Of a DNA stretch of 64,000 nucleotides, positions 898 to 33,949 are shown piece after piece (position 1 is the stretch's first letter; every line of letters begins with the position of its first letter). Below the pieces are notes generated by a model that was not told the origin of the DNA, did not search any database, and saw only the letters and a program-made list of their open reading frames with translations. This stretch comes from an uncultured Gemmatimonadota bacterium (GTDB lineage Bacteria; JAAXHH01): positions 3,264,001-3,328,000 of the forward strand of contig OX638340.1 of the NCBI GenBank assembly GCA_951812955.1, given 5' to 3'. The position numbers and the translations under genes are program-made.

Positions 898-1095
898 TGC
901 CTCCTGCGCATCACAGCGCTTTCCTTCGGGTAGTTCCGGTTGCGGGTTACGAATCCGTACCAGAGTAGATATACTGCGTACCGTTTTCCCTGTCATCCCT
1001 TTTCTTATCTGTCGCGCCGACAACAACTTGAGTTGGCATTGGCCACAGGCTGAATTGCCTTGCCGCTTCCCTACCGGCGGCATACATTCAACCCC

Positions 1096-2481
1096 ATGCC
1101 CGACCATACCGCCGATTCCTCGAAACCGGCCGATAAAGAGGTCCCGCCTTCCCAGATCCTCCGTCACGTCTGGGCCATCGCCTGGCCCGTCGTGGTCGCA
1201 TCGCTGATCGACGCCACCGAAGGACTCGTAGACATCTACTTCGTGGGATTCCTGGGTCCCGCGGCGATCTCCGCCATCGGCATGAGCCGGCAGATCGTAT
1301 TCATCGTCATGGTCATGGCCATTTCGATCACCGGGGGAACGAGGACGCTGGTAGCCCAGTACTACGGGGCGGGCAGGCACGGCGACGTGAGCCGGACCGG
1401 CCAGCAGGCGATCCTGATGGGTATATACCTGGCCCTGGGTCTCGCGGCCGTCAGCATCGTGCTCACCCGGCCCGCGCTGGTCCTCCTCGGCGCTCCGGAA
1501 GAGGTGCTTGCCCACGGCATCCTTTTCCTGAGACTCTATTTCGCCGGCATGATCTTCATGATCCTCAACTACGTGATGAGCGCCATCTTCGGAGGCGTCG
1601 GCGACACCCGCACCCCGCTGAAGATCTCCGTCATCGTCATAATCGTCAAATGCGCGACGTCCTACGCGCTTATCTTCGGAACCTGGGGAATGCCCGCAAT
1701 GGGCGTGGCCGGCGCGGCCGTGGGCATGATCATCTCCCGGCTGGCGGGATGCGTCATCGGGATGGCGATCCTGATCCGGGGCCGCGGACAGGTACGTCTC
1801 TCGAGAAAATGGCGCTTGAAACCGGACTGGAGCATCATGTCCCGCATGCTCGACATCGGTCTTCCATCGGGCGCGTCGGGGTTCTTCAGAAACGGTGCCC
1901 GTGTGCTCCTGTACCGGGTGATATCGGGGGTGAACCGGCCCACCGCGGCCATCGCGGCCCTGACTATGGGTTTTCAGATCCGCCTGTTCGCGATCATGCC
2001 CGCCCTGGCCTTCTCTGTCGCGGCGACCTCCCTGGTCGGACAGAGGCTCGGCGGACGCCAGATCCGGTCGGCCGAGCAATACGGCGGGCAGACGATCCTG
2101 CTTTGCATGGTCATGATCGGGGCCGGTTCGGCCTTGATCTGGATATTCGCCCATGCGATCGCAGCCGTATTCACGACGGACGAGATGGTCCTAGGCATCA
2201 GCTCCGACATGCTGCGTTTCTTCGCCATCGCCCAGGTATTCTCCGCTCTGTCCATCGTGGCCAGCGGCGTGCTGGCCGGCGGCGGCGAGACCCGGCCGTC
2301 CCTGTACTACACGCTGTTCTCGCAGTGGGGCATCATGCTCGTGTTTTCCTACGTCCTCGCTTTTCCCCTCGGGCTGGACGTGACGGGCATATGGATCGCC
2401 TGGCTCGCCGCGGCCGTTTTGCAGGGCCTGCTTACGCTCAAGCGCTTTTTCAAGGGAACCTGGAAAAGGGCGGTAGTCTGA
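1096..2481 (+). CDS. MATE family multidrug/toxin efflux transporter
   Basis: 12-TM hydrophobic profile, motifs typical of NorM/DinF-type MATE pumps (LIDATEGLVDIYFVGFLG..., ...GMPAMGVAGAAVG...). ATG at 1096 preferred over track TTG start at 1060. Confidence 0.8.
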   Translation: MPDHTADSSKPADKEVPPSQILRHVWAIAWPVVVASLIDATEGLVDIYFVGFLGPAAISAIGMSRQIVFIVMVMAISITGGTRTLVAQYYGAGRHGDVSRTGQQAILMGIYLALGLAAVSIVLTRPALVLLGAPEEVLAHGILFLRLYFAGMIFMILNYVMSAIFGGVGDTRTPLKISVIVIIVKCATSYALIFGTWGMPAMGVAGAAVGMIISRLAGCVIGMAILIRGRGQVRLSRKWRLKPDWSIMSRMLDIGLPSGASGFFRNGARVLLYRVISGVNRPTAAIAALTMGFQIRLFAIMPALAFSVAATSLVGQRLGGRQIRSAEQYGGQTILLCMVMIGAGSALIWIFAHAIAAVFTTDEMVLGISSDMLRFFAIAQVFSALSIVASGVLAGGGETRPSLYYTLFSQWGIMLVFSYVLAFPLGLDVTGIWIAWLAAAVLQGLLTLKRFFKGTWKRAVV

Positions 2482-2528
2482 CGGTGAAACGGTGTTCGGG
2501 GGGAGAACGTGGCGCCTGAGGTCAGGCG

Positions 2529-3176
2529 CTACTCACGCAGCATCCGAATGCCATTTGCGATACCGTCCGGATGCTTGAATACGGCCGTGGCGGCCACCAG
2601 GATGTTTACGCCGGCCGACACGGCGTCGGGCGCGGTATCGGCGTTCACGCCGCCGTCCACCTCCAGGTCGCATTCGAGTCCCCGGTCCGTTATGGACCCT
2701 CGGACCTGCCGGATCTTCGGCAGTACGGAATCGATGAACCGTTGCCCCGAGAACCCCGGGTTGACGGACATGACAAGGACGAGGTCGAGTTCGTCGATAA
2801 TCTCGTCGAGGACGTGTGCCGGCGTGGCCGGATTCAGGGCGACCCCGGCCTGAATGCCCCGTTCCCTGACGGACTGCACCACCCTGTGTAGATGAGGCGT
2901 GTTCTCCTGGTGCACGATAATCACGTCCGCCCCGGCGTCCATGAATACTCCGACATACCGGTCCGGTTCCTCGATCATCAAGTGGGCCTCGAGCGGCAGG
3001 TCCGTGAGAGAGTCGATTGCCTCGACGATGAAGGGTCCCATGGAGATATTCGGCACGAACCGGCCATCCATGACGTCGATATGTATCCGGTCTGCGCCGG
3101 CGCGTTCCACCGCTCGGACCTCCTCGGCCAGCCGGGTGAAATCCGCCGACAGGATGGATGGCGAGATCTGGATCAC
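2529..3176 (-). CDS. rpe: ribulose-phosphate 3-epimerase
   Basis: VIQISPSILSADF...HIDVMDGRFVPN...MSVNPGFSGQ...EVDGG matches Rpe throughout; likely GTG start (VIQISPS) overlapping gnd stop by 4 nt (GTGA). N-terminal extension in track ORF judged spurious. Confidence 0.85.
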   Translation of the reverse strand: MIQISPSILSADFTRLAEEVRAVERAGADRIHIDVMDGRFVPNISMGPFIVEAIDSLTDLPLEAHLMIEEPDRYVGVFMDAGADVIIVHQENTPHLHRVVQSVRERGIQAGVALNPATPAHVLDEIIDELDLVLVMSVNPGFSGQRFIDSVLPKIRQVRGSITDRGLECDLEVDGGVNADTAPDAVSAGVNILVAATAVFKHPDGIANGIRMLRE

Positions 3177-4237
3177 GGTCCTCCCCCGTTCGGTTTCTGT
3201 TCCACGTGTCCTCCGAACTGGTGGCGCAGGGCCGAAAGCACCCGCGCCGCGTAGGAATCGTCCTGACGCGACTGGAACCTGGTGAACAGCGAGGCCGTGA
3301 GCACGTGGGCGGGCACGTCTTCCTCGATGGCCGTCTGCACGGTCCACCTGCCCTCCCCGGAGTCCTGCACGTATCCGGAATAGGCCGACAGGTCCCGATC
3401 CTCCCGCAGGGAAATCTCAAGAAGATCCAGCAGCCAGGAACTGACCACGCTCCCGTGCCGCCACACTTCGGCTATGTCATGCAGGTCCAGGTCGTACCGA
3501 TGGCGTGGGTCCACGCGGTCTGACCCGGATTCCCGGAGGATTTCAAGTCCTTCTGCAAAGGCCTGCATCATGCCGTATTCGATCCCGTTGTGGATCATCT
3601 TGACGAAGTGCCCCGCGCCTGCCGGTCCCACGTGTACATAGCCCTTCCGGGCGTTTGAGCCGTGAGCGTCCGCCGATCCCAGAGTGTCCGTCGAACCCGC
3701 AACGTCCGTCGGATCCGGAGCGTCCGTCGATCCCGACGCTTCGCGATTCTGCGCCTCGCCACCCTTCCCGGGACCGGGGGCCAGCGTCCGGAAAAGCGGG
3801 TCCAGGCGTTCGACGATCCCCGCGGGACCTCCGATGGTCATGCAATAGCCTCTCTCAAGGCCCCAGACGCCACCGCTGGTACCCACGTCGACGTAGTGCA
3901 GCTTGCGGGCGGACAGTTTCTCGGCGCGGGCGACGTCGTCCTTGAAATAGGTGTTTCCTCCGTCGATGACGGTATCGCCCGGAAACAGTGCTTCGGCCAG
4001 TTCGTCAATGGTCCGTTCAGTGACGTCGCCGGCCGGCACCATGACCCAGACCGCGCGGGGAGCGTGGAGACCGGCCACGAGATCGCACAGCGTGGATGCG
4101 CCGGTAGCGCCTTCTTGCTCCGCCCGGCCGATCGCTGAGCTGTCCCGGTCGTACGCGACGACTTCGTGGCCGCCGCGCAGCAACCGCCGCGTCATGTTGC
4201 CGCCCATCCGGCCGAGTCCGACCATGCCCAACTGCAT
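3173..4237 (-). CDS. gnd: 6-phosphogluconate dehydrogenase (decarboxylating), short Gnd-like form, with ~45-aa low-complexity insertion
   Basis: MQLGMVGLGRMGGNM Rossmann N-terminus, ...YVDVGTSGG..., ...HFVKMIHNGIEYGMMQ... typical 6PGDH motifs; internal GSTDAP/DPTDVA/GSTDTL/GSADAH repeat insert. Confidence 0.85.
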   Translation of the reverse strand: MQLGMVGLGRMGGNMTRRLLRGGHEVVAYDRDSSAIGRAEQEGATGASTLCDLVAGLHAPRAVWVMVPAGDVTERTIDELAEALFPGDTVIDGGNTYFKDDVARAEKLSARKLHYVDVGTSGGVWGLERGYCMTIGGPAGIVERLDPLFRTLAPGPGKGGEAQNREASGSTDAPDPTDVAGSTDTLGSADAHGSNARKGYVHVGPAGAGHFVKMIHNGIEYGMMQAFAEGLEILRESGSDRVDPRHRYDLDLHDIAEVWRHGSVVSSWLLDLLEISLREDRDLSAYSGYVQDSGEGRWTVQTAIEEDVPAHVLTASLFTRFQSRQDDSYAARVLSALRHQFGGHVEQKPNGGGP

Positions 4238-4278: not shown

Positions 4279-5406
4279 TCAGGCCGGCTGCAGACGCTTT
4301 TGTTCTATGGCTTCCATCAGTTTCACGAAGGGGTCCACGAATTTCATCACCCCTTCTTCCACAAGCTGGTCGGATACCCGTTCCATCGAGATTCCGGCTT
4401 TCTCCACATTGGCCAGAACCGATCCGGCTTCGTCGATATTGGCTTCAAGGGTGTCGGACAGGCGCCCGTGATCGCGGAAAGCGCTCAGGGTTTCATCGGG
4501 CAGGGTATTGATGGTGTCTTTTCCGATCAATTCCTCGACGTACAGCACGTCCCGGTAGTCAGGGTTCTTGGTACTCGTGCTGGCCCACAGCAGCCGTTGC
4601 GGCCTGGCGCCTTTTTCGGCCAGCGCGTTCCAGCGCGGTGTCTCGTACAGCGCCTTGTACAGTTGGTAGGTCGTCTTGCCGTTGGCGATGGCTGTCTTGC
4701 CGATCAGGCCCCGGATCATGGCACGTACCTCCGGATCGTCGGCCTGCTCTTCCCGTTCCGCCAGCAATGCGTCGACGAGCGTATCGATCCGGCTGATGAA
4801 GAAACTGGCCACGCTCGCCGTGCCGCCGATCGCTCCCCCCGCGGCAAGGCGGTCCTCGAGCCCGCCGATGTAGGCTTCGGCCACGGTCTCGTACACGGCC
4901 CTGGAGAACAGCAGCGTTACGTTGATATTCAATCCCTCGCCGATCAACCGCCGAACGGCCGGTATGCCCGCCCGGGTCGCCGGTACCTTGATCATCACGT
5001 TCCTGCGGTCCACTTCCTCCCACAGCCGCCTGGCTTCCGCGACCGTTCCCGCAGTGTCATCAGCGAGTTCCGGCGATACCTCCAGACTCACGTAACCGTC
5101 GGCGCCTTCGGTGGCGTCATACACGGCGGAAAGCCGATCGGCGGCCTGCCGTATATCCGCAACCGCAAGTGCCTCGTAGATTTCCACGGCGTTGCGGCCC
5201 TGTGCCGCCAACAGCCCGATGTCGTCATCGTAATCCGTACTCCCCATGATGGCTTTCTCGAAAATGGCCGGATTCGAGGTCATGCCCTTCAGCCCGTCCT
5301 CATCGATCAGTCTGCTCAACCGGCCCGATGCGATCAGGTCGCGGCTGATGTTGTCCAGCCAGAAGCTCTGGCCGTGCCGTGCGAGTTGGACGAGAGGATT
5401 AGCCAT
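4279..5406 (-). CDS. tal: transaldolase (long, ~370-aa form)
   Basis: MANPLVQL...QSFWLDNISR...GMTSNPAIFEKA...VSLEVSP...IKVPAT typical transaldolase signature. Confidence 0.9.
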   Translation of the reverse strand: MANPLVQLARHGQSFWLDNISRDLIASGRLSRLIDEDGLKGMTSNPAIFEKAIMGSTDYDDDIGLLAAQGRNAVEIYEALAVADIRQAADRLSAVYDATEGADGYVSLEVSPELADDTAGTVAEARRLWEEVDRRNVMIKVPATRAGIPAVRRLIGEGLNINVTLLFSRAVYETVAEAYIGGLEDRLAAGGAIGGTASVASFFISRIDTLVDALLAEREEQADDPEVRAMIRGLIGKTAIANGKTTYQLYKALYETPRWNALAEKGARPQRLLWASTSTKNPDYRDVLYVEELIGKDTINTLPDETLSAFRDHGRLSDTLEANIDEAGSVLANVEKAGISMERVSDQLVEEGVMKFVDPFVKLMEAIEQKRLQPA

Positions 5407-19495: not shown

Positions 19496-19540
19496 CCTGT
19501 GATTAAGCGCCAGAAAGTGAACGCGTCCGGACGGCTTCCC

Positions 19541-20716
19541 ATGTCGAACCACGTGATCGAAGCGGCGGCACAGCTCAGGTGGTGGCTGCGGCTTCCCCCG
19601 ACCAACCTCATCGACCGGGGCGACCACGTCCGTTTCCGGTACGCCCTCTACCTGATGATCCACCAGGTCGCCACCGTGCTCTACGGCATAAACGGGCTGC
19701 CCGAAAGTATGTACTATCCCTCGCGGCTCGAGGGTGCACGAAACCGCCTGGACGGGTTGACCCGGGCGCCGGAACACGCGGGCTCAATCCTCTGGACACT
19801 GGCGACCGAACGCGATCCGGAGAAAGCGTGGGCGGCCGCGGCAGGACTGATGCGGGATACCCTGGCATTGCTGGAAGAATCAGCGGATGGGCGTGGTTCA
19901 ATGGGTTGGGAAGTCGAGGAAGGATCATTCAAGCCGGATCAGTCTCGGAATCCCGATGATCTATACGCACTGGCCGCCGAAATCGCTGAGCGGCTTCGCC
20001 TCCTCGAGAAAGCAAGCGCCGTGGCTCTGGGCGGATCCCTGGGGAGGGGTTACGCAGACCGCCAGTCGGATATCGATCTGCTCTTTTTCGGGCCGAGCAT
20101 TCCCCGTGAGGTCGATCGCCGCCGGCTGATCTCGGCCTGGCCGGACATTCAACATGGACCCCTGGTCGAACCGGCCTGCGACAGCGTGGTGCTCGATGGG
20201 GCGATGGTCCATATACGCTACTGGACCAGGCAGACCGTGGAAGACATGCTGGCGGCAATTCCCAGGCCACCGGTACAGCGGATCCTTGCAGAAGAGTTAC
20301 AGAAATGCCACGTCTTGATCGATCCGGACGGAAGGCTTCTCGCGTGGAAAGGCGTTTTGCATCACATTCCATCGGAATTGGTCACGGTTATTTACGAAGA
20401 AGCGCGGGGAAGGCTGCCCGCTTTTCGTAAGCAGTGGCAGAAGGCGCAGGAGTCCGATGACCGGATCCATCTCTACTGCCTGGCCAACCAGGCCGTGAAC
20501 GATTTCCTGATTGCGCTGTATATCCGGAATGGGCGGTTTCTGAGCACGCCCAGATGGATTCACCTTGATACGCACGCGTTCGATGTCGGTCTGCCGGAAC
20601 TGGAATGCAGATTGGCTTCGTTTGTGGACGGGATAGACGACCGGAAAGATACTGCGGCGAGATGGCGCGCGCTTGAGGTTTTGTGGGGGAAGTTGGCGAG
20701 TTTGCCGCCTTCATAG
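19541..20716 (+). CDS. nucleotidyltransferase-domain protein (Pol-beta superfamily), unusual in having ~180 aa N-terminal to the NTase motif
   Basis: GGSLGRGYADRQSDIDLLFFG = GS-x9-DxD nucleotidyltransferase motif; ATG at 19541 preferred over track GTG at 19499. Confidence 0.55.
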   Translation: MSNHVIEAAAQLRWWLRLPPTNLIDRGDHVRFRYALYLMIHQVATVLYGINGLPESMYYPSRLEGARNRLDGLTRAPEHAGSILWTLATERDPEKAWAAAAGLMRDTLALLEESADGRGSMGWEVEEGSFKPDQSRNPDDLYALAAEIAERLRLLEKASAVALGGSLGRGYADRQSDIDLLFFGPSIPREVDRRRLISAWPDIQHGPLVEPACDSVVLDGAMVHIRYWTRQTVEDMLAAIPRPPVQRILAEELQKCHVLIDPDGRLLAWKGVLHHIPSELVTVIYEEARGRLPAFRKQWQKAQESDDRIHLYCLANQAVNDFLIALYIRNGRFLSTPRWIHLDTHAFDVGLPELECRLASFVDGIDDRKDTAARWRALEVLWGKLASLPPS

Positions 20717-21650: not shown

Positions 21651-21941
21651 ACGTTGCCATTAGTGGCGGCATTGTTGGCTATAGAATGGACATCTACGTA
21701 GTACGGGGTTACGGCAGTCGAGGGCACGGCTCCGTTCTTCGGTCGGAAGCAAACGAGGAACCATCTAGTCGCTATTAAGGCTGAGGTGGCATTTTCAATG
21801 GCGAGCCGACACGCGGACTGGATGAAACAGGGTCGGCGAGATTATGAATACTACATCCGTGCGGAAGCGAAATGCGCACTGGCGAACGCCGCGCAGGTCA
21901 TCGACTTCTGTGAAGGTATTCTGGCTGGACCGCTCTCGACT

Positions 21942-22257
21942 GATGGAGCGTCTCAATCGAGCGGTCCGAACGCTGGGTGACCGCCACCCCGAAATCGAAT
22001 CGATCTATCTGTCCGGCTCGTTGGCGCGGGGAGACGCTGTACCCGGCAGCGACAGCGACGCGGACCTGCTGATCTTGGTGAGTCATGCCACCGAGCCGTT
22101 TCGGGATCGACCGGTCTGTTACCACACGACGGGTATGGGCGTGGACGTCGACGTGGTGGTTTACACGCGAGAGGAACTGGACGCGCTGCTGGAGACGGAC
22201 AACGAATTCGCACGGCGGGCATTGCGTGAGGGTGTCCGGTTGTTTCCGGTTCGCTGA
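21942..22257 (+). CDS. MNT-type minimal nucleotidyltransferase (antitoxin-like), apparently orphan
   Basis: ...IESIYLSGSLARGDAVPGSDSDADLLILV... = GSxxRG-x6-10-DxD of KNTase/MNT family; no intact HEPN partner found adjacent; start at MERLNRA ATG. Confidence 0.55.
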
Positions 22258-22860: not shown

Positions 22861-22982
22861 GCCACATCAATCAATTTAACATGTTTCAACCGGTATACAT
22901 TCACACAAATATGCAAGCCATGTATCCAATGAAACAGTAGAGCCGTGGCTACCACAGCGAGCAGCAACTAGATTTGTTTAGG

Positions 22983-25900
22983 TTAGGCCATTAGATGCTC
23001 CAAAAGATTGTGGCTAACAGACCTGACTGTTCCCGTAGAAAGATCTAAAGCAACCTCCGCCATACCCACACCTTCGGATTGGGCGTTTATCTCTGAGCGC
23101 ATCCAAGCTCTTAGCCGTTCCGGCTGTTCATAGGTATCCAAAAGAAAGGAAGGGTAATTCAATTTTTCGAAGCTTGTGGGTTGGGTTTCTAGTCGGTTGA
23201 AAGCAAGCTCACGTACTTTCTTGTCACGTGTGAAACGGGCAGCTACGGCGCGCAAGCACGAAGGCAAAAACTCCCAGATATCACCACGGAGGTTCGACAT
23301 TCTCGTCTCAACTCCGATTACGAATTCATTCGGAGATGCGATTGCGGCTAACAATTGTATCTGAGCCGGAAGCAGGAGTTTAGGTTTTTCAGCTTGAACA
23401 CGGGTTCTCAGTTCTTTCCATGCTTGCGAGTCTGGCCAGCCTGCACTAAGGGCGATAACAAGCGCATTCGAATTGTCATCTAGAGTTACACAAGACTTTA
23501 GAACTTCGTAAGTTTTGGTATCGTTGGAAAATTGTTCAGCGAGAATTTCTGCAGCTACTATGCCAGGAGCAGTTTCGATCCAACTGCCTACATGGTGATA
23601 TTGAACTAAGGGGAGGCAAAGCTCGCGTAGTTGTTTCGTATTTCGCAATTGACTAGAATAAAGTTGTAGCATTGGTGCAGTCGTCATACTCTGACTAGCT
23701 TGTTCAACAATCTCGTCTGCTTTATCAGAATCTGTGGCGTGGGCAGCCATTTCCGTTAGGAATTCATCCGACATCCATCCTATTTGTTCCCAAATACTAT
23801 CACCGAACGCCTGAGTTATCCTATTCCAATGGCTGACCAAGTGTTCGGCTAATCGTAGGTTAGTGCTATGGACTACGCCAAAGCCTCGGTCATTTGTCTC
23901 ACATTCTGACCACACAGTTTTTACGATGTCAAGTCGGTCAAGCTCAAGAAGTACGGAGAAGGCCGCTTGGCGCCGGTCCCCGTAATCCGGTCCTATAACA
24001 AGCAACCCCTTTGTCAGTTTTTCAAGAAGTTCAGATGAGAGTTCATCTCGTTGAATGACTGATGCTGCGAAGCCGATTGCAGCTGCCGTTTTAACATTTA
24101 CATCTATATCTTCATCATAATCTGACAGAAGTTTATATGCGAAATCATCGTCTGGACCTAAGCGTGCAAGTCGATCGACGACAGTCAAACGGAGTTGTAC
24201 GGGGAGTGGACTACTTAGTTTGAGCAGTTCACAACGTATCTCATCACAATTTAGGTAGGCATTTGCAACGGTATTCAAGTCCCCTGCACGATTCCGTAAC
24301 TGATGAAAAGACAAGTCACGTACCTTGGGATGATTAGGAAAGTGTTTAATCAAGTCACTTACGCCCCAGTATGGTACGCCTGATGGTACCTCCCCCGAGT
24401 ATTTCTCTATAGCTGCTGGCACTACTTCCTCGTCATGCTCCTTTACTCCAAGATTGACCAATCCTATCAAAGCACCTCGGGCTGTTGAACCCGATTCATT
24501 GTTAAGAATCTCTAGTAAACGCCGCCGACATAGTACTTTATCGAGAAGAATCTCTGGCAGAAGATGTGCGGCCTTTATCGCAACATCACTATCAGCAAGA
24601 TTTAACAAAGCAGTAGCAACTTCTTTATCCTCCATACCCCATCCTAGTAACAACCACCGAGCTTGGTCCTTTGATATAACACCAGTATCCTCGTCCGGTT
24701 TAAGCAAAATACCCTTTGCCTGTTCTGATCGAGAGATGAGGCAAAGTTCGAAATCCCAAAATAACCTTCCGTTTTCTTTTTTAATTTTCCGCTCTAGCCA
24801 GTCGTCAACGGCTAGTCCTAATATCTGATGACCAGCGAATGCCTCAACGAGCGGTCCCCAGTTACCGCCAAGGCCAATTAAATGGCTAGGATAGTCTTCA
24901 GTCCGAAACAAACCTGCAATGGCCTCAGCAACCTCATCATCTTGCGGAAAACCTTCCAGCAGAATGATTCCGACGGCTCCAGAATCAACTATTACTTTAT
25001 CACCATTTCGTTCGATACTCCGTATCGCACTGTTTTTGACTCCAATGTCACCTGGCCAACCCTTGAGAAGAGCCCGAATTCGGTCGTCTTTCCAGCACCA
25101 TGATGCAAAGTGAAAATCTCGTGCAAGTTCTACTAATGTCTCGTAGTCATCCACATCCTGTTCTTTGCGTTTCACTCGATGAATTAGTGCGACACTTTGT
25201 AATGCAACATCGGCAGATGACCGCGCGTGCTTCAAGATTTCAGGAAGCCGATGATTAGTTTCCCAACCAAGGCAAAGCGCATGCAAGGAGCAGGCAAGCA
25301 GTCGCGGTTCAGAAGGAATCAATAGTAAGTCAAACAGCCATTCTGCAACAGAAGGATCACCTCCGTAAGCTCTTGCGAGTGATTCTGCTGCTATTCGTTG
25401 ATTCCAAGCTTCTTCATCAATAAAGCCACGCATTAATATCGCTTGGCCCTCGCTAGAAATACCCCATTTCGAGGCGGACTCATACATTCCGTGACGATAT
25501 TGATGTCGCAAGGGAAACCAGCGTTGAATACGGGACTCTACATGTGATCGCAGTATCTCGGATTCAAGTCCATCAAGTGCAAACTCAATAAGTCGTTCTC
25601 GAGTACCCGTGCGAACTCCGGTTTCTACAATCTCAAACGTCTCTTCCGCCAGTTTTCTGGCGACACTTGGCGAACAATGGAGATCACCAAAGGCTACTTC
25701 GGCAAGAAAGCTTTGCCGAGATAACTCCATTTCAGCCGCTAGTGGCATACTTTCGATAATCGCGACGAATTCATCCACCTCACCATACCGCGAGTTAAGA
25801 TGGCACAGGCACAAAAACACATCGTGCCACTGAGGATTCTTAAATCGTTTCTTCAATGCTTCCTTTTGCTGTTCAAATGGGAGATTAGATAGGTGTTTTG

Positions 25901-27872
25901 CAGCGAGGAATTCTTGTAAAGAGCGATGTAGAAAGCCGATCTCTATTGGTGATTTCTCGATGAGAACCCCAACTGCCTCGGTACCAATAGTGAGTAATTC
26001 TTCTGCTATACTATGTGCACCTTCCGGTTTTTTATGTAGGTGAGTTGAACAAAATCCCTGAAGCACATCCTTAGCAATGACTCTATCTAGAGCATCGCTC
26101 CCCGCTGAATCGTGGGTTTCCCAAGCCAACCTAGCCAATGCCCGTTCACGTGTTTCCTGTTGCAAATGTGAGTTGGTCCCGCGTGCGTGAACTGACTTTT
26201 CACGTCGCTTGGGCTGTTCGTCTAGCAGCAGACGTGCTAGTTCCTCGTATGCTTTGAATCTGCTGCGGGGAAGGCTCACTTTCTGAATGGCAAGAGCAAT
26301 TAGGCCATTAAGTAGTAAAGGCACCTTTGCCAGGCGGGATATCCGTAAATCACGGTGAAGGTCTTGTATGAATTGGGTGGCTTCGGATTTCGCCCTTTTG
26401 TGTCGCATGGCGATAGAGTCGCTATCTTCGCCAGGTACAGCAAGTGTGTAGGACCGATGCATGAACCATCGTTCAGCCAAGATTCCTTGTTGTTCATCTG
26501 TCAACCCAGAAAGCTGGGCTACACGCCACCTACTGCTTAGTCCACCGATCCGCGTATAACCTAGAGGACGACTGCTGACGATTGCTGGTACATTCCGTTC
26601 TCCCACGAATTGTTCGAGCAAACCAAGCGCCGTCCGAGCATCCGTGCCGTTACTCCACTCATCAAGGCCATCTACAAATAGCATTAATCTCGAATCTTCC
26701 AAAGCCTGCTGAACCAATGTAATTAGAGCTGTCTCAGCGGAAACTTTTTGAAGCCAAGCAGTGAGAACATTTGCTAACGAACACCCTGTTTCAGATTCGC
26801 TGACAAGTCGCGTCCACATGGCAAACGGAACCCAAACAGGTAAATATTGTCCCCAACGAAGAGCACTTGCCTCATAGCGCGGATCGGTACTAAGTAGATC
26901 AAGTAATACACAACGAAGCAAGGTACTCTTGCCGATACCTGGGTCTCCAAGTACAACCGACTGATCGGAGTCTGCAAGCCAGTCAATCGCTGAGCGGCGA
27001 ACTAGCGAGGGTCGAGGCAAAACTTGCGGTCTGCGGGATTGAGTAGAGTCTTCGTTTCCATCGGTGCGGAGTCGTCCTTTATTTTGATCTTCTATCGATT
27101 GATTAGTTGTTTCAATGTGGGCAGCTTGTTGTTCTTCCAGAATATCGGGAGGCACAAATCGATCGGCTAAACTGAGGGGCTGAAAGTCAGGTTTTATGGA
27201 ACCTGTTACGGACGGGATACCGGGATCGGAAATCTCGAAATGGTGAGTATAGCAACGCCGAAGAAGCTGTCGCAGTTGTACGACCTGACCAGGTTTTAAT
27301 CGGCGACTCGACAGTTTGGCAGCAGCTTCTTCGCCACAGAATTCCTGCACCCACTCGCGTCCAAAGAAGTCGTCTACTAAATCTGGATGGTTTTTTAGAT
27401 GTTCAGAAATCTGCGTGACACCAAGTGGTAGGAATTGGATGTTGCGTTCACGGAGGCGATCGCCTTGTGATTCTAATTCTATTGCAAGCTTTTTTTCTTC
27501 GGTCTTCACCGAAACTGCTAGTACAAACTTATCGGTTTTAGGTGCCCATGAGCCTTTTAAAAAACCAGTAACCGCAATGTCGATGAGATCCGAGCTGAAT
27601 TCCTTGTATCTTTTGCACTGCCAAACAGTATATCTGGATGATTCCAATGTGCGTACGTAGATATCTATACCTTCTTGATCCTGACCTGGAATCCCATACT
27701 CTTGACATCTTTCCACTTTTCCACCGCGCTGTGCGAGGCGAGCACAAAGTCTTTGAAAGAAGTTCCACGGTAAGAGGTTTAGTGGGAGTTCCTGTAATCT
27801 AGTTCTAATGGGATGAGAGACAAATGATTCAGATGGTACCCACACACTTGTGTTTTTTTTTGATTCTTCCAT
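22983..27872 (-). CDS. NLR-like antiviral STAND protein: N-terminal Mrr-type restriction-endonuclease-like domain + NACHT NTPase + ~1000-aa C-terminal helical (HEAT/ARM-like) repeat region
   Basis: N-term ...GQDQEGIDIYVRT...YTVWQCKRYK... (Mrr_cat-like D...QxK); Walker A VVLGDPGIGKSTLL; NACHT-type Walker B LMLFVDGLDEW followed by AIVSSRP; remainder alpha-helical repeats. Real ATG is second codon of track ORF (track starts at TTG). ~45% GC. Confidence 0.85.
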   Translation of the reverse strand: MEESKKNTSVWVPSESFVSHPIRTRLQELPLNLLPWNFFQRLCARLAQRGGKVERCQEYGIPGQDQEGIDIYVRTLESSRYTVWQCKRYKEFSSDLIDIAVTGFLKGSWAPKTDKFVLAVSVKTEEKKLAIELESQGDRLRERNIQFLPLGVTQISEHLKNHPDLVDDFFGREWVQEFCGEEAAAKLSSRRLKPGQVVQLRQLLRRCYTHHFEISDPGIPSVTGSIKPDFQPLSLADRFVPPDILEEQQAAHIETTNQSIEDQNKGRLRTDGNEDSTQSRRPQVLPRPSLVRRSAIDWLADSDQSVVLGDPGIGKSTLLRCVLLDLLSTDPRYEASALRWGQYLPVWVPFAMWTRLVSESETGCSLANVLTAWLQKVSAETALITLVQQALEDSRLMLFVDGLDEWSNGTDARTALGLLEQFVGERNVPAIVSSRPLGYTRIGGLSSRWRVAQLSGLTDEQQGILAERWFMHRSYTLAVPGEDSDSIAMRHKRAKSEATQFIQDLHRDLRISRLAKVPLLLNGLIALAIQKVSLPRSRFKAYEELARLLLDEQPKRREKSVHARGTNSHLQQETRERALARLAWETHDSAGSDALDRVIAKDVLQGFCSTHLHKKPEGAHSIAEELLTIGTEAVGVLIEKSPIEIGFLHRSLQEFLAAKHLSNLPFEQQKEALKKRFKNPQWHDVFLCLCHLNSRYGEVDEFVAIIESMPLAAEMELSRQSFLAEVAFGDLHCSPSVARKLAEETFEIVETGVRTGTRERLIEFALDGLESEILRSHVESRIQRWFPLRHQYRHGMYESASKWGISSEGQAILMRGFIDEEAWNQRIAAESLARAYGGDPSVAEWLFDLLLIPSEPRLLACSLHALCLGWETNHRLPEILKHARSSADVALQSVALIHRVKRKEQDVDDYETLVELARDFHFASWCWKDDRIRALLKGWPGDIGVKNSAIRSIERNGDKVIVDSGAVGIILLEGFPQDDEVAEAIAGLFRTEDYPSHLIGLGGNWGPLVEAFAGHQILGLAVDDWLERKIKKENGRLFWDFELCLISRSEQAKGILLKPDEDTGVISKDQARWLLLGWGMEDKEVATALLNLADSDVAIKAAHLLPEILLDKVLCRRRLLEILNNESGSTARGALIGLVNLGVKEHDEEVVPAAIEKYSGEVPSGVPYWGVSDLIKHFPNHPKVRDLSFHQLRNRAGDLNTVANAYLNCDEIRCELLKLSSPLPVQLRLTVVDRLARLGPDDDFAYKLLSDYDEDIDVNVKTAAAIGFAASVIQRDELSSELLEKLTKGLLVIGPDYGDRRQAAFSVLLELDRLDIVKTVWSECETNDRGFGVVHSTNLRLAEHLVSHWNRITQAFGDSIWEQIGWMSDEFLTEMAAHATDSDKADEIVEQASQSMTTAPMLQLYSSQLRNTKQLRELCLPLVQYHHVGSWIETAPGIVAAEILAEQFSNDTKTYEVLKSCVTLDDNSNALVIALSAGWPDSQAWKELRTRVQAEKPKLLLPAQIQLLAAIASPNEFVIGVETRMSNLRGDIWEFLPSCLRAVAARFTRDKKVRELAFNRLETQPTSFEKLNYPSFLLDTYEQPERLRAWMRSEINAQSEGVGMAEVALDLSTGTVRSVSHNLLEHLMA

Positions 27873-28376
27873 CAATGTAAATCCTTAAACCGATCGTCGA
27901 TGATGTTACCTCGATTTCGTGGACGATTTACCATTTGGGATTCAGGCTGTTTGCTTGAAGCTCCTTTCGTAGGTTGATGGTGAGAGATATCCGGGGGAAG
28001 AGTGCTTTCTCCAAGTATTGTAGAAGTCCTCGATGTATTCGAACAGTGCGAGTCTAGCCTCGGTCCCTGATTCGCTAGACCGACCGTATGTTGCAAGTGG
28101 AGAAACCTGAGAAAGTTATAGGTAGGGTTGCAAATACTATAATAAACATAGGCAATCACTACGTGGATTCGCCATCTGCACACAACCAAGGCACGCGTTC
28201 GAACGGGTTTTGGTTTCCAGTGATTAAACGATTCTTATATCGTCCTCGATATTCGAATTTCCGCAACAATATCAATTCGATATACCACTGACTTAGGCGT
28301 AAAGAATCCAATAGTGCATCCATCGAAATGTGACCATGCCTACGTTCAGGGTGAACGATATCATTACGAATCTTTG

Positions 28377-29444
28377 TTATCGCGGTCGGACCGTCCGTCC
28401 ATCCCTTCTTTTAGCAATCGCTTCCAAGTGTTTGCAGTGTGACGGAATTTTTGCTTCGATTTCTAATTCTTCGAGTGTCTTTTTTAACGATTTACCGAAA
28501 GAATACACCGTTTCCTGATTGATAATGTAGGACAGAGATTCTAGGGCAGCCTGAGTAAGAACGATTCCCACGTGAATGGCGCTGCCAGCACTATTCACAT
28601 ACCAATCTATAGCCCGACGAATGGCATCTTTCCATTCTTCCTTGGTATACAATTCCCAGAACCCACGAAAAGATCCGGAAAGACTGCCTCCCCCGTCATG
28701 TTTCGCGAGCCACGTGTGCCTGCTTTCTTGCCAGTGAGTTACGTACTTCGTTCCCCATAGTATGGACTGCTCCCCTCCACTTACATCAATTCCTTTTACA
28801 GATGTAAGACCACACGCCGTGCCACGAGCGAATGAGAAAAAGGTCCCTAATCCGTCTATTAAGGGTAATACGTCACCCACGGTAAACACTTTGTTGTTCA
28901 GAGAGTAAATTGCTCCAGTGTGGGTTATGGCATATCCTCCACTTTGTTTTAGGATCTTCTGATTCTCAAAAAAATTGCGATTTTCTTTAATCTCAATCCG
29001 CCAATGATCGACTTCTAGGATTGCGAACCCAAGTCGTCGATATACTCCATCTATTTCTATGTGTTTATCTTGTGCACCATAAAACGTTATGAAATTGAGT
29101 ATACCGAATCGCACAGATTTAAGTCGGACATCGGACCGAGCTACTGTACAAGGACTCTGAACAGGGCCTAAGGAACCTTTGAATCCAATTACTGAATCCT
29201 TATTGAGACTACATGACTTCAGCTTTACTCGAATCCTTCCGCCGCTCTTCAAGGAAATAAAAAAAGGTTCATACATAAATCTCTGTCGCATAAACAATGG
29301 ATATTCATCGGAATCGATAGAAAACTGTAATCTGGGCGACAGTCGAAGAACCGCGCGAACCTTACAAGGCGTGGATAGACATTGGTCTTGTATGTGAGTG
29401 ATACTTGTATCGTCAAGAACAACTGGTTCATTCGGTTTGCACAT
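28377..29444 (-). CDS. hypothetical protein, 355 aa, no recognisable motif; low-GC island gene between the RM gene and the NLR gene
   Basis: Long clean ORF, ~43% GC, codon usage like neighbours, 44 bp downstream of the RM gene stop on the same strand. Confidence 0.5.
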   Translation of the reverse strand: MCKPNEPVVLDDTSITHIQDQCLSTPCKVRAVLRLSPRLQFSIDSDEYPLFMRQRFMYEPFFISLKSGGRIRVKLKSCSLNKDSVIGFKGSLGPVQSPCTVARSDVRLKSVRFGILNFITFYGAQDKHIEIDGVYRRLGFAILEVDHWRIEIKENRNFFENQKILKQSGGYAITHTGAIYSLNNKVFTVGDVLPLIDGLGTFFSFARGTACGLTSVKGIDVSGGEQSILWGTKYVTHWQESRHTWLAKHDGGGSLSGSFRGFWELYTKEEWKDAIRRAIDWYVNSAGSAIHVGIVLTQAALESLSYIINQETVYSFGKSLKKTLEELEIEAKIPSHCKHLEAIAKRRDGRTVRPR

Positions 29445-29487
29445 AACCTACCGATTATCCTTCAATCACCGTGAAAAGATTCTTAAA

Positions 29488-32400
29488 CTACTCCATCGCC
29501 ATAATGATTCTCGCAATCCGCCTAGCGGTTTCCGTAAAGTACTTAATCTCTTGGGGATTGAGCGCACGCCCGATCACATTGAACTCGCGGTAGGATAGCC
29601 ATTTCTTAAGTACCTGATAGCCGCCAAGCTTGTAGTTCCAGATTTTGGTGGGTACGTTATGCCAGAAGGCGCGGTCGTTCAAATACACGTCCACAGTAGT
29701 TGCACCTAGTGCGGAAATCGCCGTACCTAGGACGGCGCGTTCGTCAGCCGTGTATTTGCGTTCGACGATGCGGCCTTTGCCCGGCATTACCGTGTCGCCC
29801 CGTCCGTAGTGACCCCACCTCGCAGTCACTGCGAAATCATCATCGGTCATATTGCTACCGTGGCTAGTTGTAGGCACGGCAAGCGAAGCGATCTCAGGTG
29901 GTATCGCACCCTGAGTAACGCCCGGTACCGGGGTGTCGGGATCAAATAGACAGGCTAGTTCACGACCCCGGTCGGCCGATTCAGCGAATAACTCAGCGGC
30001 ATTTTTGGTATCCCCATTGGGCCAGCCCGGTAGTGGTATACGCGGCCAGTCCATTGCAAGCGCCCCGGCATTAGCTTCACGATATGTCGGATTGTGGAGG
30101 ATGGTAAGGATGTTGTGGAATAAGTCCTCAGGACTCGCTCGTATACGATGGAGATAGCGTTTGCCAGCCTCAGATAAGTTTGGTAGGTAATGTAATACGT
30201 TGTCACCAGCCCCAAGGACGTCGTTGTTAAGATAGATGGGGAACCATATCGCAGTACGTTCGATTAAATGCATAGCACCAAAGTGTCGGGTAACAATGGT
30301 CTGTGCCTCCGTTACGTCCTTACGAAGATGCTGAGCTGCACACAGCCACAGGTTTTCCTCGAACACCTGTCGCTTGTAGTCGGCACGCTTGTCGTTAAGG
30401 AGTTTAGTCTCTGCTTCCCAGTAAAGCCATCGGATATCGAAGGGGCGGTACGCGAAGCGAATGAACCCGCCTTCGTTCGGTCCGCCGCGTGCGAGTAGTG
30501 TTTCGCGCACAGAGTGAGCGTCAAAATGCCTCGCGGTTTTCATGATAATAGGATATCGCTGGGCAATCTCGTTGTGGCTCAAATTCACGTCGAAATAATC
30601 GGAGACGCGGGCCATTAGTCGATCAAGGTCGATATCGACAAGAAACGAGTCCCGGTTGGTCTTTGCTCCAGGAAATGAGATCGGATAAATATCGGGTAAC
30701 GTAGGCCAGTTGAACCAGCCCTCACTCACCGCCGTACGCACGAACGGCAGGCCAAGCGGCAAAGATGGCTCGATGCGGTCATAAAGTACGTTTGGTTCCG
30801 CATGCGCCGTCGCCATCAGTTCCTTGCGCTTTGTACGTCCCCACAGATGGCGAAATCCGATCTCCACTGCGGGGGTATGATTGTACTTACGTACCAGAGT
30901 TGCAATGGCCGTACCCACCTGAATGCCAACCGGATTGTCCGGCGTCGAAAAGATACTTGGGTCTGGCGAGCCATCGGGAGCGACCTTTCCGGTCTTATAT
31001 TTGTCGCCATTTAAGCAGTCGATCCGAATCGAGTCGAAAACCTTGAGGAAGCGCTCCCTCATACCAGCGAACGACAGCCCGTCGAGCCAGGAATAATTGG
31101 AAATGAAACAGATTACCCCCTGACCGGTTCGCCCAGCAATCCGTCTTTCAGCCATACGGAAGAATCGGATGTATAGATCGATCAGTCCCTTGCTTTTTTC
31201 CATCCGTACTTTGCTTGTCTTACGATAGGCTTCGAAGAGTTCGCGTTCTTCATCAATCGTTACACCGGCAAAGGCATTATAGGGTGGATTACCCAAGATC
31301 ACCAAAACCGGAGTCTCCTGCTTCACTCTCTCGGCCCGGTCACGCTCTTCCTCCAATTCAGGGAACGGCAGCACATTCTTAGTTCGCGGCTCCCATCCAG
31401 TCAGAGCGTTTGTTAGGAAGACTTGGGCTCGTTCCATCCCGTCATCGGAAAACGTCGCATCAAGTGCCTGCATGGTCAACCCGATCTGAAGATGCGATAC
31501 GACAAAAGGCGCGGGCATGATCTCGAAGCCAAACACCCGTTCTAATGCCGCCTGCTTTACCTGCGAACCGACAAGCGCACCGACTCCTTTGTTTTCAAGA
31601 TTGGAAGCAATATTGCGTAACACTTCTGCCAGATAGGTTCCGGTACCGCAGCATGGGTCGAGCACATATACGTTTTCCGCAGCTAGTCCATCTGGAATCC
31701 CCAGATCGTCTTTGAGCGCTTTGTCCACTCGTGTAACCATATAGCGCACTACTTCGATTGGTGTGTACCATACGCCTAGTTGCTTACGCAACCCAGGGTC
31801 GAATGCCTGTAGAAAGGGCTCGTAGAAATAGGTTACCGCTTCGCCTTCATTGAATCGGGTGAAGAAGGTAGTGCGGTCCACACGGTTAAGAGCAGCGGAT
31901 GTCCAATCCAACACTTCCACTAGGCCTAGAGGCTCAAGGCGAGCAGGCTGTGAGAGTTGCTGGAACAGAGATTGCATGATAGGAGCACGTAAATGCCACA
32001 CAGCTTCACGCCAGTTGAACCGCCCTTGTGGCGGTGGCACCTGTCGTGTCCACAAAACCTAGGCGGAAAAAACCCCATAGAATAGTGTCTGCACTAGCGT
32101 TGAATTGAAAAACTGTGTGCCTTTTTCCCCCTCGAATCGGACACCAAGCGCGGCTTCTATCGCAGCCCGCACCGATTCTAGAGACGGCGAATCGTCGACG
32201 GCTTCGACACGAGAGAGCCCATCCCGAGCATAAGATGCTAACAACCACGCTAGGTCCTTAGGCTCGGTAAGCATAGTGCGATGTGACAAAGCTCGGGAAA
32301 GATACTCACCCAAGCCCACGCTGACCTCTCGGGCAAAGGTTCGCGGAGTCGCTAACTTTAGATCAAATTCCTCAGCAGTCTCGGCTACCTTAAAGCACTC

Positions 32401-32829
32401 CAATACCGTCTGCTTCCCGACATCGTCTTCTCCCACCAAAACGAATTCACAAGTGTCGGTCACCAGCACCTGACGATAGCGTGCCCAATACCGGGCGACC
32501 TGTTCGCCGACCGCTGTCGCTGCAGCATCACCAGAGAGTGACTTCACCTCCACAACGCCACGTTCCGGCGCTTGCTCTTCGCGAGGTCTGCCTCTCCTAA
32601 CCTGGTTTTCAGTAAAAAGCCCGAAGTCAGGATGGCCCGCACCTAGATCAGCAAGCTCTCCAACGCAATGCACCTTAGGATTGAGCATTCCACCGATGGC
32701 GTTCAGCAGATTTGCGATTGGTCCATAGCTAGAACGTTCTCCGGTCGCAGCCCCGGAAGCCTTTATTCTCTGCAAATCGGCGAAGTAGAGCTCAACTGCT
32801 GCAGTTAGTTTATTGTTCAATACTGTCAT
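29488..32829 (-). pseudogene. MmeI-like single-polypeptide Type IIG/IIL restriction-modification enzyme (PD-ExK nuclease + gamma-class N6-adenine MTase + TRD), interrupted by one in-frame TAG at 32059-32061
   Basis: N-part (32829-32062): ...LGAGHPDFGLF...GVVEVKSLS... PD-x(n)-ExK. C-part (from 32055): ...VLDPCCGTGTYL (SAM motif I), ...ILGNPPYNA (motif IV), C-terminal TRD. Both parts are in the same frame: TTT TCC GCC TAG GTT TTG TGG. Downstream part could still be translated from TTG/GTG as MTase+TRD. Confidence 0.75.
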
Positions 32830-33224
32830 GATTACAATTATAAGGTTGATGAATGCAGGCGCTATAGTGTGTTAGAGGAGTTATGCGAAAAGCGAGGAGT
32901 GGTGTCTAATGTAACAGCGACCTTTAAATGCGGATGTTTGATGCTCGTAAGAGTCAGGGAATTCGGGTTCTTTTTCTTCAATTTTCAATGTCATCAATGC
33001 GAAACTTCACCCTGACGTATTTGCTGTCTTCGTTTTGTTCAAGCTCTGGTTCAGCGCCGTTGAGCTCGCTAATCGCTTTGCGCATCAACGGCCACACTCT
33101 TCCTCTTTTCCATATATCCTAACTGCCATCTAATTTGCCATCAGTTTATTTTAACGTGCATGTATTCAGATAAAGTACTGTATTAAGTTGAGGACATCCC
33201 AATTGATCTCCTGTTGTTCCGTCC

Positions 33225-33491
33225 TCAGCGATATATCTTATCCCGTCTGCCAACTCGAATTACCAAAACGCGCAACGCTCCGGTCTGTATGTCGCAGATC
33301 ACACGAAAGTCACCGACCCGATATCGCCACAATTTGCCCATCGGTCCGGCCAGTGCCCTTCCCGTGTTTCGTGGATCACTGGAGTCAGCAACGCGTTCTT
33401 CAATGTAATTGACGATGCGCAGTGTCGTCTGCTTGTCGAGCTTGCGAAGATCGTTAAGGGCGGTTTCAGTGTACTCAATCGTCCAGGGCAA
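33225..33491 (-). CDS. RelE/ParE family type II toxin
   Basis: MPWTIEYTETALNDLRKLDKQTTLRIVNYIEE...GKLWRYRVGDFRVICDI... typical RelE/ParE fold sequence; overlaps antitoxin gene by 17 nt. Confidence 0.75.
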   Translation of the reverse strand: MPWTIEYTETALNDLRKLDKQTTLRIVNYIEERVADSSDPRNTGRALAGPMGKLWRYRVGDFRVICDIQTGALRVLVIRVGRRDKIYR

Positions 33492-33702
33492 GGGACTTTC
33501 TCACTTCGGAAGCAGTGTAGACTTTTTCCGTCCCTCTTCTGAGGCGATTCAGTACGTCCGACGCAAAGTAGTAGTCTTCCAGGTCTTCGAGGCCACGCTC
33601 AATGATCTCACGTAAGTGGAAGTCCTTGCTGAGGCTCGTCTTGGATACCAATAACTCAAGCCGCTTTTCATCTTCGGGAGTCAGTTGTATCGAAGTCGCC
33701 AT
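33475..33702 (-). CDS. RHH-type antitoxin (RelB/ParD-like)
   Basis: MATSIQLTPEDEKRLELLVSKTSLSKDFHLREIIERGLEDLEDYYFASDVLNRL...; ribbon-helix-helix N-terminus, immediately upstream of toxin. Confidence 0.65.
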   Translation of the reverse strand: MATSIQLTPEDEKRLELLVSKTSLSKDFHLREIIERGLEDLEDYYFASDVLNRLRRGTEKVYTASEVRKSLALDD

Positions 33703-33949
33703 GTCGGGTAATCCTTTGTCGATTAAACTACAACTGCGAAGAATCATCTAAGTTTCAACGTACTTCATAGAGGTACTTACGTCAATATCCTAATCCTTTT
33801 CGCGCGGACTGAGCCTGTCTTCATCTCAGTATAGTCACAATACTGTGGCCTAAGAAACCCCCCGCCACCCTGCATCCGCAATACCAACCCTTCCCCGCTC
33901 TGCCGCAGGCTATATTATCAGAAGGCGGCTCAAAATCCGGACGTCTGAA

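Follow-up and report, generated by a model that had tools for sequence, protein, structure and literature searches.

Introduction

HEPN clades that are linked to restriction–modification (RM) systems have been catalogued together with the PrrC paradigm (PMC3710099), an idea that dates from 2013. The ApeA/BMEI1217 clade was noted by Aravind as embedded in R-M operons (PMC3710099). ApeA is a single-gene HEPN nuclease that cuts the anticodon loop, assembles into ring oligomers and is activated by 5'-phosphorylated deoxydinucleotides (bioRxiv 10.64898/2026.01.26.701840). HEC-08 is a HEPN protein nested in another immune system, and the histidine of its Rx4-6H motif is needed for defence (bioRxiv 10.1101/2024.01.29.577857). 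In this study, we analysed a 64,000-nucleotide stretch of DNA, hereafter the window, from an uncultured Gemmatimonadota bacterium (GenBank assembly GCA_951812955.1, contig OX638340.1, positions 3,264,001 to 3,328,000), in which a minus-strand open reading frame (ORF) of 355 codons lies between a type IIG/IIL RM gene and a NACHT/STAND gene. This ORF is almost certainly part of a disrupted HEPN gene of the YopA family. The locus as a whole is best explained, with a probability of approximately 0.7, by a 428-codon YopA-family HEPN gene that would encode a PrrC-like, restriction-coupled abortive-infection ribonuclease (RNase).

The YopA family is large. Pfam lists it only under the name of a prophage protein that is uncharacterised, and neither PADLOC v2 nor NCBIfam contains it. 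Here, the family is tied both to restriction systems and to a catalytic core of the HEPN type, and the copy in the window is a broken member. Unless another locus is named, coordinates refer to the window.

The 355-codon ORF and the restored gene

In the ORF listing and its translation, 28377..29444 of the minus strand forms an uninterrupted, ATG-started frame of 355 amino acids. A first-pass annotation, made from the letters and the ORF list alone, had given the coordinates and both terminal peptides exactly, leaving the strand unstated, and had regarded the ORF as long and clean. It is in fact a truncated reading of a 428-codon gene with a 1-nucleotide deletion at 28410/28409. In the alignment with homologues, the window protein ends approximately 75 residues short, just before a block with a conserved R-N-x-x-x-H that is present in 15 of the 15 full-length sequences aligned. 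The missing residues, approximately 82, are encoded downstream in the −1 frame at 28410..28159 (KKGWTDGPTAITKIRNDIVHPE...YKNRL...VPWLCADGEST*), and the two frames joined give 428 amino acids, equal in length to the closest homologue, P0002.

The contig that encodes P0002 (locus L078) carries an orthologous copy of the whole island with an intact 428-amino-acid gene. Window 32836..22947 is collinear with it at 79% nucleotide identity over 9.9 kb, and the flanking host gene matches too. At the break site, L078 reads GCT AAA CAG AAA GGG TGG and the window reads GCT AAA AG AAG GGA TGG; relative to L078, one C is missing between 28410 and 28409 (AAA CAG to AAA AG), and the reading frame is cut 15 codons ahead of the catalytic arginine. 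Instead of the uninterrupted YopA architecture of approximately 420–460 amino acids, the window ORF stops at residue 355, and one added base restores the frame. The features of the gene are as follows.

29444..28159, minus strand: restored YopA-family gene, 428 codons
28377..29444, minus strand: 355-amino-acid ORF as called; codons 1–345 are the genuine N-terminal part of the YopA-family protein, with the beta-rich domain and the first HEPN helices
Last 10 codons of the 355-amino-acid ORF, minus strand: out-of-frame read-through, RRDGRTVRPR
28409..28410, minus strand: frameshift site, one C missing by comparison with L078
28159..28410, minus strand: −1-frame continuation, which encodes the catalytic helix and the final helix of the HEPN domain
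28351..28368, minus strand: HEPN catalytic motif R-N-D-I-V-H (Rx4H), with the invariant R, N and H columns
29445..29487, minus strand: spacer of 43 nucleotides from the RM stop to the ATG

The ratio of non-synonymous to synonymous substitution rates (dN/dS) was obtained from Nei–Gojobori counts with the missing base restored and L078 as the reference (window 29444..28159 against L078 4247..5533). Codons 1–346 have a dN/dS of 0.27 and 64% amino acid identity. Codons 347–428, with 20.5 synonymous and 5.5 non-synonymous differences, have a dN/dS of 0.055 and 94% identity. Along the protein, identity to L078 is 47–70% across residues 1–280 and 82–95% from residue 281 on. Between these two copies, divergence has been much faster in the putative sensor half than in the nuclease half.

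The orphaned tail has thus been kept in the HEPN frame by purifying selection for essentially all of the divergence from L078. Because its dN/dS is so low in that frame, the deletion is either very recent or an assembly error. As the called 355-amino-acid product lacks the active-site helix, it would be catalytically dead as sequenced.

The YopA family and its HEPN domain

Among 5.8 billion proteins searched, 29 homologues were found. One of them is identical to the window protein and a few are shorter; the others span approximately 413–495 amino acids, most of them 420–440. The identical sequence (P0001, 100% identical to the window ORF) bears precomputed Pfam assignments to YopA_M (PF26308) and YopA_C (PF27216). 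Both domains occur on nearly all of the 29 homologues, P0019 having YopA_M alone. One relative, P0013, matches yopA of Bacillus phage SPbeta/SPBc2 (tblastn, E=3e-20), and an alignment of seven sequences that includes YopA contains 34 invariant columns, among them R360, N361 and H365. A profile search of 1.84 billion cluster representatives detected 3,780 relatives at E<=1e-3 and, among these, 1,997 at <=1e-30, which places the family at no fewer than 3,780 clusters at 50% identity. Across 110 diverse representatives of the family, R360, N361 and H365 are the only invariant columns. The product had been described as unrecognisable and the best candidate for an undescribed protein, a description that does not survive the Pfam domains on the identical protein, the thousands of family members and the HEPN domain. 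The PADLOC and NCBIfam models miss the family.

The Rx4-6H motif of HEPN proteins is encoded in the window as RNDIVH at 28368..28351 in the shifted frame. The impression that the protein has no known motif is accordingly correct within the called ORF but not for the gene, in which the motif sits past the called stop. In the AlphaFold2 model of P0002 (pLDDT 91.9, pTM 0.91), residues 1 to approximately 245 are beta-rich and residues 251–396 are helical; the motif lies on helix 352–364, and the final helix spans 375–396. The C-terminal domain of the family is a helical HEPN fold with the canonical catalytic motif and is a predicted RNase. When the P0002 model was searched with Foldseek, neither PDB nor BFVD held a significant match over the whole chain. 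In profile and sequence scans, the 355-amino-acid ORF gave nothing beyond a weak ApeA_NTD1 match against Pfam, PADLOC, NCBIfam, PHROGs and PDB sequences, and it was the precomputed Pfam assignment that provided the YopA domains. A PADLOC PDC-S58 match on P0002 (E=0.017) was dropped, having not been reproduced in the 110 family members. Literature searches on YopA with HEPN and on MmeI with HEPN found nothing relevant.

The weak ApeA_NTD1 match (PF18862; E=0.067, 13 bits against a cut-off of 25.5) was compared with that of other family members and of ApeA itself. P0007 (25.9 bits) and P0013 (30.1 bits) just pass the cut-off, and Ec1ApeA and Ec2ApeA themselves do not match this domain. The PADLOC ApeA model (PDLC02157) had no match in the window ORF, the restored protein, YopA, P0002 or the 110 representatives, with Ec1ApeA (2e-278) and Ec2ApeA (4e-11) as positive controls. 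HEPN_Apea (PF18739) gave no match at E<=1. By hhalign, the family profile aligned to the first 399 residues of six ApeA proteins with a probability of 0.15; these sequences were taken from the supplement of bioRxiv 10.64898/2026.01.26.701840 and cut at 399 amino acids, so that their HEPN domains lie outside the comparison. Membership in canonical ApeA was rejected on the basis of the positive-control PADLOC scans and hhalign, and ApeA is a useful functional analogue that belongs to a different family.

The upstream RM gene and the origin of the two lesions

The gene upstream of the YopA-family gene, which is its conserved partner, has the following features.

29488..32829, minus strand: type IIG/IIL restriction-methyltransferase gene of 1113 codons with N6_Mtase and Type_ISP_C domains
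32059..32061, minus strand: TAG nonsense codon (W257*); the codon is TGG in L078 and L079, and the aligned residue of L001 is Trp

The gene matches N6_Mtase, Type_ISP_C (E=5e-37) and the PADLOC model REase_MTase_IIG (1e-82), and its translation, inspected by eye, shows a PD...EVK nuclease motif at the N-terminus. Its product is 66% identical to the intact 1114-amino-acid protein of L001. Two ORFs of 256 and 855 amino acids are the halves of this one gene, split by the TAG. In the gene that the first-pass annotation called MmeI-like, the domains of a single-polypeptide type IIG/IIL enzyme are thus present and the frame is broken. In L078, the RM gene is itself frameshifted at approximately 850–1100, between the PD and EVK motifs, which represents either a second, independent inactivation or an assembly error at low coverage (3x).

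The spacer between the RM stop and the ATG measures 43 nucleotides, where 44 had been given, and neither promoter-like nor terminator-like sites were seen in it (29445..29487) on the minus strand. Co-transcription with the RM gene is probable, as had been proposed.

In the window, the RM gene and the HEPN gene are both interrupted and the 4.9-kb NACHT gene is intact. The RM–HEPN module is either freshly decaying or carrying two assembly errors. That the frameshift, and possibly the TAG as well, arose by assembly or base-calling error in an organism that carries an intact, working module is possible but falls short of being probable. Just one base is missing, and the out-of-frame tail with its 94% identity and low dN/dS is free of further stops. 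Contigs of this kind carry indel errors, as the frameshift in the RM N-terminus of L078 illustrates; approximately 14% of the loci in the family appear broken, and metagenome-assembled genomes are the source of many loci in the family. However, the adjacent AT-rich NACHT gene is in frame despite 55 homopolymer runs of >=4, and the remainder of the RM gene contains no indel relative to L001. An error would also have to strike both genes of one module in two independent lesions, and the assembly's own annotation calls the 355-amino-acid product (P0001).

A programmed frameshift, by ribosomal slippage or phase variation, that yields a 355-amino-acid regulator and a 428-amino-acid nuclease is extremely improbable. 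The site does follow an A-run (AAAA) and precede a possibly rare AGA codon, and in the family member at L070 the frame shifts a few codons before the equivalent position. Slippage, however, would require tRNA-Lys to move by −1 from AAA onto UAA, with which it pairs poorly, and a run of four A is too short for phase variation. The orthologues in L078, L079 and L001 are in frame at the site, and the breakpoints of other disrupted copies are scattered along the gene. Disruption affects approximately 10 of 73 family loci, either through frameshifts or through intervening ORFs of 330–590 amino acids, which are possible insertion elements. The split or truncated loci (~14%) are L026, L030, L046, L047, L054, L070, L071, L072, L074 and L075; in L026, the MmeI gene and the HEPN gene are both split.

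Genomic neighbourhoods of the family

Nearly all examined relatives above approximately 43% identity sit directly downstream of a type IIG or type I restriction gene. In L001, L078 and L079, this is a Type_ISP_C/N6_Mtase type IIG gene of 1068–1132 amino acids. In eight further loci (L002, L003, L004, L008, L009, L010, L013 and L026), the relative follows an MmeI-family gene of 920–946 amino acids at gaps of −4 to 68 nucleotides, and in L006 and L007 it lies between hsdS and hsdR of type I operons. L011 and L046 (46–48% identical) are exceptions that follow an Mrr-type restriction gene. The more distant L016, L021, L043 and L064, the last from an archaeon, come directly after hsdS, and L016 is then followed by hsdR; overlaps of 4 nucleotides are frequent in relatives at the hsdS/hsdR positions. 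The relatives in L014, L023, L027, L031, L034 and L051 are within or beside a type I gene cluster, that in L066 comes after a 1199-amino-acid protein with a weak MmeI match (E 3e-09), and a copy on an Escherichia coli IncY plasmid adjoins type I M and S genes.

With crude phmmer seeds, an RM gene was adjacent or in the same operon in at least 23 of 75 loci. Among the remaining loci, a Pfam scan of 88 neighbours added four genes of Eco57I type, two N6_Mtase and two Mrr genes, the rest being heterogeneous. RM linkage is thus strong but not obligatory. The view of the gene as a defence-island gene is supported. RM genes, and not the NLR-like gene, form the conserved neighbourhood, and a NACHT neighbour recurs in L078 alone.

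Further modules of the nucleotidyltransferase/HEPN type were observed beside some of these operons. In L006, an NTase_sub_bind gene and an NTP_transf_2–HsdS fusion (1083..3238) stand beside the same RM operon, and in L004 a MNT-HepT pair does so (4442..5111). RNA-targeting modules such as these nucleotidyltransferase/HEPN-type pairs may stack on one restriction system.

The same neighbourhoods bear on whether the protein instead acts alone, as a single-protein abortive-infection system comparable to ApeA or AbiJ, whose position beside RM genes reflects the clustering of islands without functional coupling. We consider this rather unlikely. More than half of the surveyed loci, and yopA of SPbeta, have no RM neighbour, and ApeA works alone and senses a small molecule. 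Such independence accords poorly with the 4-nucleotide start/stop overlaps with MmeI, hsdS and hsdR, and with an insertion point between hsdS and hsdR that recurs in unrelated phyla and an archaeon. The concentration of close relatives beside type IIG and type I RM genes, with Mrr-type genes in L011 and L046, also argues for coupling.

The NACHT gene and the edges of the island

Two features lie downstream of the YopA-family gene.

22983..27875, minus strand: NACHT/STAND gene, 1630 amino acids; downstream neighbour, shared with L078 alone
27945..28115, minus strand: relic of the C-terminus of an insertion sequence (IS) integrase core (rve_2, E=1.3e-6), between the HEPN and NACHT genes

The low-GC (guanine–cytosine) stretch extends over 22983..33747 and has 48% GC overall, compared with 60–63% in its flanks. 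The 355-amino-acid ORF itself has 43.7%, in agreement with the approximately 43% reported against a host value of roughly 65%. A codon usage shared with both flanking defence genes had also been reported. The GC content at third codon positions (GC3) of the ORF (0.40) is close to that of the NACHT gene (0.39), but that of the RM gene is 0.56. The distance of approximately 500 bp to the NLR-like gene was likewise measured as 501 nucleotides from the ORF stop to the NACHT start, but this gap is not empty, since it holds the HEPN tail (to 28159) and the integrase relic. The relic lies within the stretch that is collinear with L078, with small indels only. A 105-amino-acid ORF at 27872..28189, which had no family match and overlaps both the rve_2 relic and the 3' part of the HEPN gene, was treated as spurious.

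The NACHT gene could be taken for the functional partner, with the YopA-family protein in an accessory or effector role within an NLR-like system. The two genes share a strand and a similar GC3, and the trio of RM, HEPN and NACHT genes recurs in L078. The copy in L078, however, is orthologous (collinear, with the same flanking host gene and 79% identity) and is not independent evidence, and the IS relic separates the two genes. No NACHT neighbour was found in the other loci with Pfam-labelled genes (L001–L004, L006 and L079), and NACHT was not among the 25 commonest Pfam families of the 88 neighbours. Such a partnership is very improbable, and the NACHT gene is a neighbour and not a conserved partner.

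Several further observations concern the NACHT gene and its surroundings. The N-terminus of the NACHT protein (26900..27875, minus strand) has weak matches to Mrr_cat (E=0.006) and Mrr_cat_2 (E=0.012), which hint at a nuclease effector. One edge of the low-GC island carries, at 33225..33747 on the minus strand, a toxin of the ParE family (87 amino acids, E=3e-14) and, upstream of it, a DUF6290-like antitoxin; the counterpart region in L078 is approximately 400 nucleotides shorter and unaligned, and the toxin pair may be absent there. At the other edge are NTP_transf_2 nucleotidyltransferase genes at 19499..20716 and 21844..22257 (both plus strand), the latter conserved beside the NACHT gene in L078. 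A second low-GC patch (46–49%) lies at approximately 12000–14000, where ARAGORN places a tRNA-like gene at 12895..12968 (minus strand) and gives its anticodon as undetermined, with four bases (cacg). Repeats at the island boundaries were sought, and short, chance-level matches only were seen.

Discussion

By analogy, it is moderately probable that the intact protein is an RM-coupled defence RNase. It would be an RNase that is kept latent and whose substrate is probably tRNA or another RNA of translation; we favour this reading because of the analogy with PrrC–EcoprrI, with HEPN anticodon nucleases such as ApeA, and with the RM-linked HEPN clades (PMC3710099). The N-terminal half may hold the RNase off until infection is sensed. 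Several triggers are conceivable: the neighbouring restriction enzyme could be lost or overloaded, DNA breakdown could yield a signalling product, as it does for Ec2ApeA, or a phage factor could act. Once released, the RNase would stop translation and thereby provide a second, abortive line of defence behind restriction.

Several points weigh against this reading. We infer the RNase activity, its target and its trigger, and no experimental characterisation of any YopA-family member was found in the literature. As sequenced, the copy in the window ends before helices 352–364 and 375–396 and so cannot act as a nuclease; its frameshift and the TAG of the RM gene could both be assembly errors. RM adjacency is not universal: an RM-type gene is adjacent or in the same operon in approximately 31 of 75 loci, and yopA of SPbeta has no such neighbour. 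As this holds for more than half of the loci and for SPbeta, the protein can work alone, and the RM linkage may reflect island clustering or synergy instead of physical regulation. Furthermore, the N-terminal half contains no ATPase and has no significant sequence or profile match to ApeA sensor domains; PrrC itself was not compared.

The restriction-coupled reading can tentatively be extended to the whole family. YopA-family proteins would then be widespread restriction-guard RNases, in which the diversifying beta-rich half monitors the restriction enzyme or DNA fragments and releases the HEPN domain upon failure of restriction. The PrrC principle, so far tied to one type Ic locus, would thereby reach single-chain type IIL (MmeI-like) enzymes and type I systems across many bacterial phyla, archaea and the SPbeta prophage. 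Paired inactivation would point to an addiction-like coupling: loss of the RM enzyme would select for loss of the nuclease, and both genes in the window would be inactivated for that reason.

If the PrrC-like reading is true, MmeI-family enzymes, which are widely used and usually deemed self-contained, would often be backed up by an RNase dedicated to them. Ready constructs are available in P0002, the intact orthologue from L078, and in relatives such as P0013. The contrast in dN/dS between the N-terminal part and the nuclease tail points to the region that likely faces phage counter-measures. For annotation, the 355-amino-acid 'hypothetical protein' should read as a disrupted 428-codon HEPN gene, and its RM neighbour as a nonsense-interrupted type IIG gene.

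Comparison with known systems

HEC-08 resembles the window gene in that a HEPN gene is embedded in another immune system. It has an N-terminal DUF3644 HEPN domain with zinc ribbons and occurs in Hma systems, and identity with HEC-08 is ruled out by this different architecture and family. ApeA shares with the YopA family a single polypeptide in which a sensor half lies ahead of the nuclease. ApeA proteins, however, are approximately 580–600 amino acids long and mostly helical, whereas those of the YopA family are approximately 430 amino acids long with a beta-rich N-terminal half.

YopA of SPbeta is homologous over approximately 77% of the length and, at 438 amino acids, falls into the same length class. 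The motifs GGYxITHxG, LSFxxG, QxALE and R-N-x-x-x-H are common to the family. It differs in being annotated as a hypothetical protein in a prophage accessory region, with approximately 27% identity to P0013, and the window copy is frameshifted.

PrrC, from the type Ic locus EcoprrI, and RloC differ from the YopA family in the half before the HEPN domain, which is beta-rich in the family and contains no ABC-ATPase N-terminal domain, no ATPase family match having been obtained. Outside the HEPN motif no sequence relationship was seen, PrrC itself lying outside the comparisons. The partner of the window gene and its closest relatives is a single-chain type IIG/IIL enzyme and not a type I complex. 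What is shared is a C-terminal HEPN RNase domain, predicted here, and the position of prrC between hsdS and hsdR, which is that of the relatives in L006 and L016, with those in L021, L043 and L064 directly after hsdS. The proposed logic, in which a latent RNase would back up a restriction enzyme, is likewise that of PrrC (PMC3710099).

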